Source of the DNA: Enterobacter phage vB_Ecl_SABI
Sequence record: PQ864023.1
Strand: one strand, 5' to 3'
Length of the DNA: 64,000 nt
Below, piece after piece: positions 53,198 to 57,728 of the stretch. Each line of letters opens with the position of its first letter. Position 1 is the first letter of the stretch. A program made the translations under genes and the position numbers. The notes below the pieces were generated by a model that was given only the letters and a program-made list of their open reading frames with translations, was not told where the DNA came from and made no database searches.

Positions 53198-53214
53198 AAC
53201 GCGCTATGCGCGTT
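53198..53214 (-). promoter_or_regulatory. 17-bp perfect palindrome AACGCGC-TAT-GCGCGTT (7-bp stem, 3-nt loop)
   Basis: Member of a recurrent RYGC-TAT-GCRY hairpin family located upstream of early gene starts. Confidence 0.4.
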
Positions 53215-53215
53215 T

Positions 53216-53499
53216 CTAACAGATGATTAAGCAGCTAACACGGTCACGCCATGCAGCATATTGCAGAGGACTGCCGTTGACCTCTTCACTGAACGCAGAG
53301 AGGTCTTCAAATGCTTCACGCCCCAGAATAGAGGCAGCGACTTCAACCTGAGTCTCTAAAGCCAGGTCGGACATAATTAACTGAGACATACCTTTATGGA
53401 ACAGGAACAATGCCAGATCACGCATTTCTCCATCCATCCACGCACGCTTACACCAGCGCAGATTAGTCTGAGCATGATCGATATTCATAGTTGGCATAC
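53216..53499 (-). CDS. hypothetical early protein (start moved to MPTMNIDHAQ with RBS AAGGA; ORF-track 53216..53560)
   Basis: The ORF-track start abuts the palindrome hairpin with no room for an RBS. Confidence 0.4.
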
Positions 53500-53562
53500 A
53501 ACAATCCTTAGAGTTGAACCCTGGCTTCAGCAGCCCTGAAACCAGAGTATTATTAGTCATTG

Positions 53563-53579
53563 AACGTGCTATGCACGTT
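53563..53579 (-). promoter_or_regulatory. 17-bp perfect palindrome AACGTGC-TAT-GCACGTT (7-bp stem, 3-nt loop)
   Basis: Same family as 53198-53214; 64 bp upstream of the corrected start at 53499. Confidence 0.4.
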
Positions 53580-53842
53580 TACCAAACTTGGTAATTTAGA
53601 ACGATACGAAAGGTAGGATGTATACCTAATAGCAGTTTAGTTTTTATTTTATTTAGTTCTCCGGGTGGGATACTAAATCTAAACTGATGTGTACCTCTTA
53701 TATAGCCATCAGAGAAATCCTTACGATTCCAACGATATATAGTTATATCTCCGAATACAGTACCGTTATCATTAGTGATAACAGAATCATCGAACTCGAT
53801 GGAGTAAGCTGTATCTTTACGCTTACGTTCGATTATAGCCAT
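53579..53842 (-). CDS. hypothetical early protein, 87 aa
   Basis: ORF in array; start overlaps the previous stop. Confidence 0.4.
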   Translation of the reverse strand: MAIIERKRKDTAYSIEFDDSVITNDNGTVFGDITIYRWNRKDFSDGYIRGTHQFRFSIPPGELNKIKTKLLLGIHPTFRIVLNYQVW

Positions 53843-54189
53843 TAGCTAATACCTTTGATTGTTGCCTCCGTTTTAACATAGGGATACTTACCCTGAAGCA
53901 TTTGCTTGGTTAAACGGACACTGAGCATGATAGTTTTACACTTGATACCAGGTATACCTACACGGAGCATAATCTCTCCGACGAGTCTACCCGGCCCCAA
54001 TTCGAACATGCGGATATCAATAATGATATCACCTGTCCATGTGAAATTCGGTGTAAGCATCACACGAGTTTTAAGATTTTCCATCACTCCCGGGGTAAGA
54101 TAACCAATTTTATCAAATGTGTTTCTTTCAGCATCCCAACGAAGTATTTCTGTACCACCATCAGTCAGTGATATATCCTGATTATCCAT
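53842..54189 (-). CDS. hypothetical early protein, 115 aa
   Basis: ORF in array. Confidence 0.4.
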   Translation of the reverse strand: MDNQDISLTDGGTEILRWDAERNTFDKIGYLTPGVMENLKTRVMLTPNFTWTGDIIIDIRMFELGPGRLVGEIMLRVGIPGIKCKTIMLSVRLTKQMLQGKYPYVKTEATIKGIS

Positions 54190-54455
54190 TCTGCTAACAC
54201 TCCTGGTTTAGTTGAGTAATCGTTAGTATCCAGATAAATAGCAACTGCACGTTTACCATTTATTTCGAATACATTATTTTCCGTTCTACCTCTTGAGTAC
54301 CAGGTTGGTACTTTTACGGTGAACGACATATAGAACTCATTAGTTGAAGTTCTGGATTTAAGTAACGCTTTGGTAGCTAGTTTCTTAAGTTCAGTTTCAC
54401 TGAGCTTACAAAAGTATCTACGCGGTGTTGCTTGTGAACCATTACCAACTCTCAT
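54165..54455 (-). CDS. hypothetical early protein, 96 aa
   Basis: ORF in array; 25-nt overlap with the downstream gene. Confidence 0.35.
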   Translation of the reverse strand: MRVGNGSQATPRRYFCKLSETELKKLATKALLKSRTSTNEFYMSFTVKVPTWYSRGRTENNVFEINGKRAVAIYLDTNDYSTKPGVLAEWIIRIYH

Positions 54456-54772
54456 ATAGCAGCACCCCCACTATCCTTTACTGGTTTATATTCAAAGAGC
54501 CACATACGTTTCTCTTTGGTATTTGCTTCATAAGCAGCAGTATCAGGATTGAGCAATTGACCACGCCAATCTTGAGGACACACCAGATATACTGGCTTAG
54601 GTGGATAACCACCCTCATACCAATACACAGAGGTAACCAGTTGCACTGGTTCTTTATTACCAATCAGGAATAGAGTTCTGATCTTATTGAACTCTTCTTC
54701 AGTTACTTTAGCTTCAGCTATTAACTTAGTACCTGATGGGTGATAGCGAATTACATCACGGATTATTATCAT
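54452..54772 (-). CDS. hypothetical early protein, 106 aa
   Basis: ORF in array, 4-nt overlap. Confidence 0.4.
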   Translation of the reverse strand: MIIIRDVIRYHPSGTKLIAEAKVTEEEFNKIRTLFLIGNKEPVQLVTSVYWYEGGYPPKPVYLVCPQDWRGQLLNPDTAAYEANTKEKRMWLFEYKPVKDSGGAAI

Positions 54773-54855
54773 TACGGTTTACCTTGATTACTTTGTTTAA
54801 TTTATAGAATTCATCCATAAACACTTCAGTATAAGATTTACCCCAAACCTTAGTT

Positions 54856-55140
54856 TTAGAAGGGTATCCTCCGGGTCAGATTGAAACGCCAGTAGGCTTC
54901 CAGATAGGAACCAGCTTTACAGAGGTCAGGATACATAAGCTGAGCTTCGATCCACAGACCATCACCAACCTTGATTTGCTTGGTTGATTTCTTCTGCTGG
55001 TTTCTGAATGTAGGTAATTTCAGTTCCACACATGGAACCTTTAGTACCATGAGCTTAACCTTCAGACTCTTTAGTAGCTCTGGTGTTATATGAACATATA
55101 ACGCTGTAGCATTGTATGCACGTAGTCTACGTTTAGCCAT
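54856..55140 (-). CDS. hypothetical early protein, 94 aa (basic)
   Basis: ORF in array. Confidence 0.4.
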   Translation of the reverse strand: MAKRRLRAYNATALYVHITPELLKSLKVKLMVLKVPCVELKLPTFRNQQKKSTKQIKVGDGLWIEAQLMYPDLCKAGSYLEAYWRFNLTRRIPF

Positions 55141-56126: not shown

Positions 56127-56143
56127 AATGCACGGAGTGCATT
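56127..56143 (-). promoter_or_regulatory. hairpin AATGCAC-GGA-GTGCATT (7-bp stem, 3-nt GGA loop); N4 vRNAP-type hairpin promoter candidate
   Basis: Perfect inverted repeat, second copy of the GCAC-GGA-GTGC core. Sits right after a terminator and before a gene start. Confidence 0.4.
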
Positions 56144-56170
56144 AAAAAAGATAAGCCCCGAAGGGCTTAT
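56141..56170 (-). terminator. rho-independent terminator
   Basis: Minus-strand RNA: AUAAGCCC-UUCG-GGGCUUAU followed by CUUUUUUAAUG. Confidence 0.75.
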
Positions 56171-56346
56171 TTTAGAGTAACTTCGAATTCAGGCTGGAGT
56201 AGAACTGGTACGGTTAACTTACCCAGTTTAACTGCGTTATATCTGCCACCATCCTGGTAGGCTTTGATGTAAGTTATATCCAGTCCAATACGCTCATCTT
56301 CAGTTAAGCTGAAATGAGCTTGTTCAGGGATATCTTTGAATTTCAT
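56167..56346 (-). CDS. small protein (59 aa), unannotated in ORF track
   Basis: ATG overlaps the upstream stop as TAATG; ends in the terminator stem. Confidence 0.4.
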   Translation of the reverse strand: MKFKDIPEQAHFSLTEDERIGLDITYIKAYQDGGRYNAVKLGKLTVPVLLQPEFEVTLK

Positions 56347-56678
56347 TAGAACTCCACTTTTTTCCAGTGTACCAGGTTAATCTGACCACCACTGTGGTAG
56401 CGTCTAAACACTTTACCTGCAACCTCTTCGAGTATTGGAAGCTTAGTGGTGTCATCCACTTTGCACTCGGTAGCCATGTGGTAATACAGGTCTTCACCAA
56501 TCTGGACTTCGATACGTTTAACGTAATATCTATAGCCCAGGTGAGTTTCTACCAGACGCTGACGGATTTGGGGTTCAGCGAATTTACGCAGATGCTCCCT
56601 TTCGAGACGCATCTCCCATCCTTCTTGTCTGGCTTTAACGATTGCATCATGTACGTTCATTTGAATAGTCTCCGCCAT
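56346..56678 (-). CDS. hypothetical early protein, 110 aa
   Basis: ORF in array. Confidence 0.45.
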   Translation of the reverse strand: MAETIQMNVHDAIVKARQEGWEMRLEREHLRKFAEPQIRQRLVETHLGYRYYVKRIEVQIGEDLYYHMATECKVDDTTKLPILEEVAGKVFRRYHSGGQINLVHWKKVEF

Positions 56679-56893
56679 GCAGTCATGGCATAAAGTACGG
56701 CACTGTTAAGTACAGCACCGTTGTTGTAAGGAGCTTTGGCTTTAGCCTGTTCAAGCTTTCGTTTGGTGAATTGGACTACTACTACGTAGTCCTCACCCTC
56801 ATGTTTGAACTTGAGTTCTTTACGGATGTGATCGCTACGCATCAAGCCCCCACATACAGAGTGAGAGCAACAGCAGCCATAGCCACTGCACAT
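56657..56893 (-). CDS. hypothetical early protein, 78 aa (Cys/His-rich N-terminus)
   Basis: ORF in array; 22-nt overlap with the downstream gene. Confidence 0.35.
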   Translation of the reverse strand: MCSGYGCCCSHSVCGGLMRSDHIRKELKFKHEGEDYVVVVQFTKRKLEQAKAKAPYNNGAVLNSAVLYAMTAWRRLFK

Positions 56894-57086
56894 TTAGCGA
56901 TACGACGGATAGTTGATTTACGAATGGTCATGATTATTTCCTCGGGTATTTGTTATCGATGAATGAGATTGCTGCGATGAAGATGATTGCACTGAGCACA
57001 ATCAGAGGTAAGTCAGAGATAAGCATAGTTATGCACCTTGGTTTATTGTTATTCCAGCCTAAGTGCTATGCACAAAGGCCGGGTTA

Positions 57087-57347
57087 TTAGTTGTAGTTTT
57101 CGTACATATCGTATCCGACTTTGAAGTGTCTGCGAGCTTTACGAATCTGCTTACGAGTAGGTTTAGTAACGAACTCATAGCAGCGTTCGTAAGGCAATCC
57201 ATAGTTATGCTCACGTTCAGTTTCACGACTGAAGTAGACCAGCCACTGAGCAGGCACATCTTCAATGATGCCATTACCAATACTGAACTTGGATGCAGAG
57301 ACATACACTACATCGGTCGAGATAGATACATTGCATTTGGTTAACAT
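57087..57347 (-). CDS. hypothetical early protein (start moved to MLTKCNV with RBS AGGAG; ORF-track 57087..57443)
   Basis: The shorter version removes an 83-nt overlap with the upstream gene. Confidence 0.4.
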   Translation of the reverse strand: MLTKCNVSISTDVVYVSASKFSIGNGIIEDVPAQWLVYFSRETEREHNYGLPYERCYEFVTKPTRKQIRKARRHFKVGYDMYENYN

Positions 57348-57360
57348 GTTAACTCCTGGT

Positions 57361-57678
57361 TTATTTACGAATGACCAGACGGTCATCGTTAATGTGAATA
57401 CCAATACCACCGTATACTGCGTATACAGCATTATGTTCACCACCGTCTTCCAGTGTCTTGATTAATGCCTGACGTCCACCATAGGCATATGTTTGTGCCA
57501 GGTAGAAGATAGCACCGTCAGGAAGGTCACTGAATCGCTCAATTTGAGGCGATACAGGGTTAGGTGATGTAACTGGGTTGGTTTGGTCAGAACGAGCTGA
57601 GAACGCGATAGAGCTATCCTGTGACAGTCTGCAATACATGCAATTACAAGCAGGTGAGCATTCAGATAAGTTAGACAT
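57361..57678 (-). CDS. hypothetical early protein (start moved to MSNLSECSPAC with RBS GGAG; ORF-track 57361..57711), Cys-rich
   Basis: The ORF-track start abuts the TACGC-TAT-GCGTA hairpin at 57716-57728. Confidence 0.4.
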   Translation of the reverse strand: MSNLSECSPACNCMYCRLSQDSSIAFSARSDQTNPVTSPNPVSPQIERFSDLPDGAIFYLAQTYAYGGRQALIKTLEDGGEHNAVYAVYGGIGIHINDDRLVIRK

Positions 57679-57715
57679 AGTTATATCTCCAGTAATGAAT
57701 AGGAATCTCATTACA

Positions 57716-57728
57716 TACGCTATGCGTA
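57716..57728 (-). promoter_or_regulatory. hairpin TACGC-TAT-GCGTA (5-bp stem, 3-nt loop), RYGC-TAT-GCRY family
   Basis: 38 nt upstream of the corrected start at 57678; flanked by the TAATGA…TCATTA inverted repeat at 57692-57712. Confidence 0.35.

Follow-up and report, generated by a model that had tools for sequence, protein, structure and literature searches.

Candidate single-stranded hairpin promoters with an ATA loop in the early region of Enterobacter phage vB_Ecl_SABI

What reads the short perfect palindromes that separate the early genes of Enterobacter phage vB_Ecl_SABI? In the stretch of 64,000 nucleotides analysed here (sequence record PQ864023.1, hereafter the window), a first-pass annotation had picked out four such palindromes of the pattern RYGC-TAT-GCRY, and had proposed that they are operators for a dimeric regulator, a second class of hairpin promoters, or signals for RNA processing. 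They lie in the early region, upstream of the genes of the phage RNA polymerase RNAPII and close to the genome end that enters the cell first. In our judgement they are likely to be single-stranded DNA hairpin promoters of the N4 type in a Cbunavirus-like schitovirus, most likely the early promoters for the injected virion RNA polymerase (vRNAP).

Five hairpins with one loop

The four palindromes are present in the window with the coordinates and sequences first reported for them, but the family does not stop there: a hairpin scan turned up a fifth copy that falls outside the original pattern. The flanking genes are encoded on the minus strand, on which the loop reads ATA, and the template (plus) strand carries TAT. 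The fifth copy, GGCC-ATA-GGCC at 58496..58506 (minus strand, as are all five; plus strand GGCC-TAT-GGCC), lies in the region equivalent to the terminal repeat, upstream of a small membrane-protein gene at 58449..58177. It is followed by TACGC-ATA-GCGTA at 57716..57728 (plus strand TACGC-TAT-GCGTA), the first promoter candidate of the unique region, which stands 37 nt upstream of the ATG at 57678 and is preceded by a non-coding tract of about 250 nt. The third hairpin, at 57057..57079, has the core GTGC-ATA-GCAC (57063-57073) and an outer helix of 4 bp (GCCT..AGGC) beyond a 2x2 internal loop; it comes after a stop codon at 57087 and 33 nt before the start, at 57029, of an open reading frame (ORF) of 30 aa. 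AACGTGC-ATA-GCACGTT at 53563..53579 (plus strand AACGTGC-TAT-GCACGTT) overlaps the TAA stop of the gene at 53579..53842, with an ATG at 53497, 65 nt downstream, and AACGCGC-ATA-GCGCGTT at 53198..53214 (plus strand AACGCGC-TAT-GCGCGTT) comes 1 nt after the TAG stop at 53216, with the start of a Drc-like gene, at 53125, following 72 nt downstream. The claim that every copy directly follows an upstream stop holds for the three hairpins that abut a stop codon and fails for 57716-57728. The distances to the next credible start, first given as 38-73 nt, are 72 (53125), 65 (53497), 33 (57029) and 37 nt (57678); the shortened start at 53497 is borne out by a full-length PHROG match (1-93 of 93, phrog_24678).

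In the order above, the perfect stems measure 4, 5, 4 (with 4 more in the outer helix), 7 and 7 bp, and every loop has 3 nt; the two stems of 4 bp are at the low end of the N4 range of 5-7 bp. The template strand folds as single-stranded DNA hairpins at -3.6 to -8.1 kcal/mol, with -8.1 kcal/mol for 53198-53214, -7.0 (z = -3.5) for 53563-53579 and -6.7 for 57057-57079. The pattern RYGCTATGCRY has 4 matches in the 64 kb, against 0.49 expected, and none of 100 dinucleotide-preserving shuffles contained at least 4. The loop is not self-complementary, so the pattern has a direction, and all four copies have it on the plus strand. The bare 7-mer GCTATGC is not enriched in the window (11 found, 8.7 expected): the signal resides in the stem, the loop and the position, not in this core. 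A looser count over both strands (C-ATA-G with a stem of at least 4 bp) gives 7 hairpins against 2.1 in shuffles, only a modest excess given a shuffle maximum of 9. The five C-ATA-G hairpins on the sense strand all lie within 53198-58506, all in intergenic DNA and upstream of the RNAPII genes, and we treat the plus-strand 4-bp matches at 29837 and 56097, and one at 31179 of Pectobacterium phage CB1, as chance. A partial copy within a gene (CGC-TAT-GCG at about 55457-55465, with a stem of 3 bp, inside the ORF 55313-55615) has no T at position +12 from the loop centre and is probably due to chance as well.

Comparison with relatives shows what is kept at these sites. Judged by its proteins, the window comes from an N4-like podophage of the Schitoviridae, close to Cbunavirus: the small subunit of RNAPII has 82% identity to that of Cbunavirus phages and 45% to that of LUZ7. 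The nearest phages by protein similarity are those of the Cbunavirus group, at about 82% (Pectobacterium CB1, Nepra and Possum; Kosakonia Kc283; Escherichia EK8), and the next are Erwinia MIF8 and the Klebsiella phages of the Efbeekayvirus, followed by LUZ7 (45%). Relatives were located by protein searches; megablast of a 5-kb region against 50,697 phage records gave only two short matches. We compared the early regions of 12 related genomes, in a search that required C-ATA-G, which makes the C:G closing pair a search criterion. These relatives carry C-ATA-G hairpins at five shared syntenic sites. One hairpin lies within the terminal repeat, ahead of the small membrane-protein gene, and another before the first gene of the unique region; one or two more follow in the next kb, and a pair stands immediately before the Drc homologue. 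At the Drc site all 12 relatives have a hairpin, with five different stems among them (AACGCGC, ACGGCC, AGGCGC, GCGC and GAATGGCC). The stems syntenic with 57716-57728 are ATGTCC, ATAGTGC, TAGTGC, AGTGC and CTGTCC, and those orthologous to 57057-57079 are TGTGC, CGTGC, CTCGC and ACTCGC. The length of the stem at orthologous sites varies from 4 to 8 bp and its sequence changes freely, and only the loop and the C:G closing pair are constant. In a gap-free alignment of 30 distinct sites, pairing extends to 89.5% of the stem cells, compared with 61% after shuffling and 20-47% when the partners are slid. The same alignment has 61 double-change cells where 18.5 are expected, and compensatory changes in 6 of 7 pairs, figures to be read with the first (inner) four base pairs paired by construction of the search. 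The hairpin is kept at every orthologous site despite the turnover of its sequence, and this is no artefact of the search criterion.

Conservation outside the stem is one-sided. It consists of a T at +7 and of R-T-G-R at +11 to +14 from the loop centre, and the mirror positions upstream carry no information. T+12 is found at 41 and G+13 at 39 of 47 distinct sites, and T12-G13 at all five sites of the window. The template loop is T-A-T, with a central purine A, at 5/5 window sites and 47/47 distinct sites of relatives. At position -8, four of the five window sites have G and the GGCC site has C; of the 47 sites of relatives, 32 have G and 14 have C there.

In the complete 76-kb genome of CB1, sense-strand ATA-loop hairpins with stems of at least 5 bp are found only at 89, 869, 1784, 2098, 6388 and 6752, and in the right copy of the terminal repeat. 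This restriction to the left 6.8 kb and the repeat agrees with the proposal that the palindromes are tied to early gene starts, which a random distribution over the genome would have contradicted. The element family has already been predicted in the closest described phages, and the window adds a further example to a known kind. Putative single-stranded hairpin early promoters in Pectobacterium phages CB1, CB3 and CB4 were listed by Buttimer et al. (2018, PMC6027278). The CB1 record (GenBank KY514264) has three promoter features, at 829-883, 1777-1891 and 6745-6769, whose notes name a stem-loop typical for N4 early promoters, and which enclose hairpins at 861-877, 1778-1790 and 6745-6759; the last feature (promoter_3) is the CB1 copy of the Drc-site hairpin 53198-53214. 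Table S4 of the same study (PMC6027278) gives the CB1 hairpins 76-105 and 2085-2114 as putative hairpin promoters, written on the complementary strand. The window hairpin 58496-58506 is orthologous to CB1 83-95 (TGGCC-ATA-GGCCA; Porf1_1 in Table S4), inside the annotated terminal repeat of 647 bp. The three phages therefore share with the window orthologous C-ATA-G hairpins at the terminal repeat, at the first genes of the unique region and at the Drc homologue, although CB1 and the window have different stems. The lists in print are incomplete and inconsistent, with three entries per phage, one of them a different hairpin with a GTA loop, whereas CB1 itself has six ATA-loop hairpins and the terminal-repeat copy; they are a prediction without consensus, covariation analysis or predicted start sites.

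Likeness to the early promoters of LUZ7 and N4

Among relatives with mapped transcription starts the closest is phage LUZ7, studied by ONT-cappable-seq (Putzeys et al. 2022, PMC9163698). Its early starts have hairpins with a stem of at least 4 bp and a start G 13-14 nt past the hairpin centre. Drc is driven by the two strongest early starts, which are separated by 33 nt, and 90% of early transcripts come from Drc and from gp01 of the terminal repeat. The middle promoters of LUZ7 are hairpins rich in GC, with a stem of at least 6 bp and a loop of 3-4 nt, about 15 nt upstream of the start (PMC9163698). In the LUZ7 sequence we find GGCC-TTC-GGCC before gp01 and, before Drc, AGACC-TAC-GGTCT and CAGGC-TAC-GCCTG in tandem, 32 nt apart and with TG at +12/+13. 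The second of these, CAGGC-TAC-GCCTG-TGTAATGG, shares the downstream TGTAATG with window hairpin 57716-57728. The ATA-loop hairpins sit at the gp01-like and Drc positions of LUZ7, and 53198-53214 is syntenic with the tandem Drc promoters. The two sets are thus alike in stems of at least 4 bp, loops of 3 nt, C:G closing pair, location at the terminal repeat and at Drc, TGTAATG after the hairpin, and the existence of a separate middle class with longer, GC-rich stems. They differ in the loop (ATA in the window, TAC or TTC in LUZ7) and in that the tandem promoters of Drc are replaced in the window by two hairpins 365 nt apart with a gene between them. The window hairpins have the features of LUZ7 early hairpins at the level of sequence, and the conserved T12-G13 fits the LUZ7 start spacing of 13-14 nt rather than the 11 nt of N4.

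The Drc-like gene itself (52841..53125, minus strand), predicted to encode a single-stranded DNA-binding cofactor of RNAPII, matches phrog_6271 (E = 1.3e-15), the family of LUZ7 gp14 (Drc), where it is annotated as 'toxin'. Its N-terminus, including a YLN motif, aligns to LUZ7 Drc, but this pairwise match is weak (E = 5e-5 over 46 aa), and the assignment therefore relies on membership of the PHROG family and on synteny. In Kc283 the orthologue bears the annotation of a single-stranded DNA-binding RNA polymerase cofactor; a sequence search of PDB with the protein of the window found nothing. An intrinsic terminator at 52812..52833 (minus strand), corresponding to Torf1_20 of CB1, follows the gene, which with its candidate promoter and this terminator forms a monocistronic unit. 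A similar terminator at 58148..58171 (minus strand; Torf1_1 in CB1) follows the terminal-repeat gene, whose product matches phrog_16196 (membrane protein).

In N4, the promoters P1, P2 and P3, which we located at 96, 565 and 4554 of the N4 sequence, each with a G at +11, have the same layout: P1 in the terminal repeat, P2 before the cofactor gene gp2, and P3 before RNAPII. As in N4 vRNAP promoters, whose stems have 5-7 bp, the window has template-strand hairpins with a loop of 3 nt, a central purine (-11), a -9C:-13G closing pair and usually a G at -8; RNA starts with G in N4 and is predicted to do so here. Promoters of the N4 type also depend on gyrase and on host SSB. The window hairpins also lie at the end injected first, in the sense of the early genes and including the gene of the RNAPII cofactor. 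The conserved TG of the window stands 12-13 nt from the loop centre, whereas the N4 start is 11 nt from it. In N4 the template loop is G-R-A, in which -10G and -12A form a sheared pair on which extrusion depends and with which K114 and R119 make contact (PMC4496689). Both are replaced by T in the window, so that recognition must differ from that of N4. The proposed reader of the ATA/TAT hairpins is the vRNAP of the window, a protein of 3623 aa encoded at 57..10928 on the plus strand that aligns with N4 gp50 and LUZ7 gp73. When the polymerase domains of N4, LUZ7 and the window are aligned, tentatively in view of their low identity, the N4 residue that stacks on the middle base of the loop, W129, has aromatic counterparts: F in the window and Y in LUZ7. 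The residues K114, R119, D901 and R904, which make base-specific contacts in N4, are not conserved in the vRNAP of the window, again tentatively. As read from these sequences, the residue pattern is consistent with the same binding mode and a different base specificity.

In the mechanism that we propose, negative supercoiling would extrude the inverted repeat, and the polymerase would bind the hairpin of the template (plus) strand, 5'-..S-C-TAT-G-S..-3', with its C:G closing pair and its central loop purine. Transcription would then start, in the sense direction, at a G some 13 nt past the centre of the loop, which predicts starts at 58488, 57709 (within TGTAATGAG), 57055, 53558 and 53193; which polymerase acts here, and at exactly which nucleotides, we infer. 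The transcription units driven by the five promoters would be short and leftmost, and two of them would be cassettes of promoter, gene and terminator, for the membrane protein of the terminal repeat and for the Drc-like cofactor, respectively. The RNAPII subunit genes (49980..52247, minus strand; 326 and 424 aa) lie downstream of all ATA-loop hairpins and were recognised by matches of ORF 51267-52247 to phrog_2166 (E = 2e-112) and of ORF 49980-51254 to phrog_2051 (E = 3e-149). No ATA-loop hairpin directly precedes them, and they would probably be expressed by read-through of the terminator 52812-52833; read-through has been reported generally for LUZ7. The first-pass suggestion of hairpin promoters survives in this proposal, but not as a 'second' class, since the synteny with LUZ7 and N4 and the restriction to the left end suggest that this is probably the primary early class.

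A number of points weigh against this reading. First, where N4 requires -10G and -12A, the template loop TAT has T at both positions. Second, the comparison of vRNAP residues was made at low identity, and the inner base pairs of the covariation alignment were, as said above, paired by construction. Third, the LUZ7 hairpins were matched to the mapped starts from the text of the paper (PMC9163698) and from our reading of the sequence. Fourth, the absence of an ATA-loop hairpin directly before the RNAPII genes makes their expression depend on read-through of 52812-52833. Fifth, a second class of hairpins with (T)TCC loops (GGA on the template), described below, resembles N4 promoters more than the ATA class does, and the two assignments could be swapped. 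Finally, the promoter annotation of CB1 is itself a prediction, and the case for this phage and for Cbunavirus is built from sequence.

A second hairpin class and the competing explanations

The (T)TCC hairpins have stems of 6-7 bp and stand after terminators or at the head of middle-gene operons; they are conserved in CB1, Kc283, EK8, MIF8, P184 and LUZ7. One of them, AATGCAC-TCC-GTGCATT at 56127..56143 (minus strand; template GGA), directly follows an intrinsic terminator at 56151-56170 that was called by the terminator scan. The hairpin scan gave others on the minus strand at 49245-49259 and 47736-47752, and, with TTCC loops, at 19869-19884 and 14955-14970. The class heads operons deep in the middle region, at 19869-19884 of the window and at 37441, 38428 and 42699 of CB1. 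LUZ7 has TCC-loop hairpins with stems of 6-7 bp at 8245, 9529 and 35259, the last at the head of the replication operon. The description of the LUZ7 middle promoters, which depend on RNAPII and Drc, fits this class and not the ATA class, and the (T)TCC hairpins are probably middle promoters for RNAPII with Drc. We infer the assignment of the ATA/TAT class to the virion polymerase and of the (T)TCC class to RNAPII with Drc from the synteny with LUZ7 at the gp01-like and Drc sites, the shared TG at +12/+13 and TGTAATG, and the (T)TCC operons of the middle region.

Some of the (T)TCC hairpins have peculiar surroundings. The one at 49245-49259 is followed within about 60 nt by a conserved inner hairpin (GACGC..GCGTC) and a strong intrinsic terminator (49166-49192), then by about 150 nt of non-coding DNA, and the arrangement is the same in CB1 (hairpin at 10971, terminator Torf1_26 at 11034-11070). 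The TTCC hairpin at 14955-14970 has the same ACGCAC stem as 49245-49259, with a terminator-like hairpin directly after it. The segments 49160-49259 and 14900-14970 (minus strand) may encode small RNAs of about 70 nt or attenuator leaders.

The existence of two classes raises the explanation that the roles are reversed, with the ATA hairpins as middle promoters for RNAPII and a Drc-like cofactor, and the hairpins with GGA/TCC loops as the promoters of the virion polymerase, as in N4. The template loops read by N4 vRNAP, GGA and GAA (PMC4496689), match the TCC class of the window and not the ATA class; the TCC hairpin 56127-56143 is in the early region upstream of the RNAPII genes, which it could in principle drive; and RNAPII of LUZ7 can also use hairpin promoters (PMC9163698). 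We nevertheless think this reversal unlikely, for several reasons. ATA hairpins do not extend beyond the leftmost 7 kb or so, which include the terminal repeat, and in CB1 one lies about 90 nt from the genome end; (T)TCC hairpins, by contrast, stand before middle operons well within the genome (19869-19884 in the window, 37441 in CB1, 35259 in LUZ7). A reversal would leave the first 3 kb or so of injected DNA without an early promoter. In LUZ7, no early genes are transcribed more heavily than the terminal-repeat gene and Drc, the two that lie behind ATA hairpins here. Finally, the LUZ7 limit of at least 4 bp for early stems fits the short ATA and TAC stems, and that of at least 6 bp for middle stems fits the TCC class.

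An action at the level of RNA, with AUA-loop stem-loops that stabilise 3' ends, are processed, or terminate a phage polymerase, is suggested by the three of five hairpins that start 0-14 nt from the upstream stop codon, the typical place of a 3'-end hairpin. The other observations make it very unlikely and give no specific support to the RNA processing that had first been proposed. The terminator scan called none of the five ATA-loop hairpins, none of which is followed by a U-tract, although it does find the true U-tract terminators nearby (58148-58171, 56151-56170 and 52812-52833). The stems, of only 4-7 bp, are too short for RNase III, and two of the sites (58496-58506 and 57716-57728) have no coding gene upstream. 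An RNA 3' end at the hairpin would exclude the conserved T12-G13, which comes after it, and a search of Rfam at a permissive threshold over 46000-60000 returned no relevant family.

The last explanation, that the palindromes are double-stranded operators through which a dimeric early regulator would control the downstream genes, as the first-pass annotation had also suggested, draws on their being perfect, 11-17 bp long, intergenic and 30-70 bp ahead of start codons, but we find it scarcely credible, as the half-sites vary in sequence and length between sites and orthologues with complementarity alone kept, the core C-ATA-G, which never varies, lacks symmetry and always faces the same way, the flanking conservation is one-sided, Pfam finds no helix-turn-helix or other DNA-binding domain in 10 early proteins and hence no candidate regulator, and the restriction to the first DNA that enters the cell suits a pre-made enzyme better than a regulator yet to be made.

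Neighbouring features and the diversity of loops

Several other features of the early region deserve mention. On the minus strand of 52266-56097, about nine small ORFs of 57-121 aa stand in a row, at least eight of which share a motif like L-K-T-R-x-L-x-G (e.g., LKTRVLIGN, IKTKLLLGI, LKTRRLMGM and LKTSKLIGK). The run resembles a tandem paralogous family of early proteins, and CB1, Kc283 and MIF8 have comparable runs of genes of about 95-105 aa at its position. Directly 3' of hairpin 57057-57079, the segment 56931-57029 (minus strand) holds two tiny hydrophobic ORFs, of 30 aa (MLISDLPLIVLSAIIFIAAISFIDNKYPRK) and 29 aa (MTIRKSTIRRIAKCAVAMAAVALTLYVGA), below the usual length for ORF calling. About 40 nt upstream of 57716-57728, a conserved hairpin at 57759-57771 reads GGTAC-GTA-GTACC on the sense strand and C-TAC-G on the plus strand, on which it looks like an early hairpin of the LUZ7 type in the opposite direction. 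It belongs to a block conserved with CB1, the relative L005 and EK8, and its CB1 copy is Porf1_2 of Buttimer 2018. The sense strand of the tract 57775-57965, which separates the terminal-repeat-equivalent region from hairpin 57716-57728, is strongly depleted in G, with 16 G in 191 nt and 5 in 57801-57900, and rich in TAC, TAT and CTA repeats. LUZ7 (about 660-790) and P184 (about 600-1100) have similar G-poor tracts at the corresponding position, and a Rho-loading site or a role in DNA injection would be guesses at the function. Between the late genes on the terminase side and the terminal-repeat-equivalent region, 58600-59470 (minus strand) encodes three small ORFs of 94, 70 and 62 aa, each preceded by a similar AT-rich motif (..ATTTTTAT(A/G)GG.. 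/ AACTTTTTCAA(C/T)TTTTT), with a fourth copy at about 58600-58660 that has no ORF; the motif may be another type of promoter or a sequence proper to the vicinity of the terminus. The window contains no tRNA genes.

The loop of the early hairpins varies between genera, since the equivalents in Klebsiella phage P184 (Efbeekayvirus) carry C-ACA-G. These hairpins, at the equivalent early sites 1126, 4061 and 5697, are ATTACCC-ACA-GGGTAAT, TATTGTCC-ACA-GGACAATA and CATTGCCC-ACA-GGGCAATG, the last before its Drc gene. Erwinia phage MIF8, which is placed in the genus of P184, has the ATA loop. We found no comparative study of the diversity of hairpin loops in Schitoviridae in the literature, and a 2026 preprint on immunity in Migulavirinae has no promoter content. 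We tentatively propose, at a little under even chances, that the identity of the loop may be a genus-specific code for the virion polymerase in Schitoviridae that encode Drc (ATA in Cbunavirus and MIF8, ACA in P184, TAC or TTC in LUZ7), free of the G:A sheared-pair rule of N4, and that the N4-like GGA/TCC hairpin, invariant from LUZ7 to this phage, would now serve as the middle promoter of RNAPII with Drc.

Our analysis provides a map, at the level of coordinates, of the early transcription units of an uncharacterised N4-like phage, with five candidate promoters, their predicted starts, the terminators, and two or three corrected gene starts. It also indicates that the early-hairpin loop differs across genera of Drc-encoding schitoviruses while the (T)TCC class stays constant. 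If the proposed code is true, two phage polymerases would be kept apart in one genome largely by the three nucleotides of a hairpin loop, and hairpin extrusion would be independent of the unusually stable GNA loop. The different genera offer a set of natural specificity variants for the study of how single-subunit RNA polymerases read hairpins, and the pairs of hairpin and polymerase could be orthogonal parts for systems of transcription from single-stranded templates.

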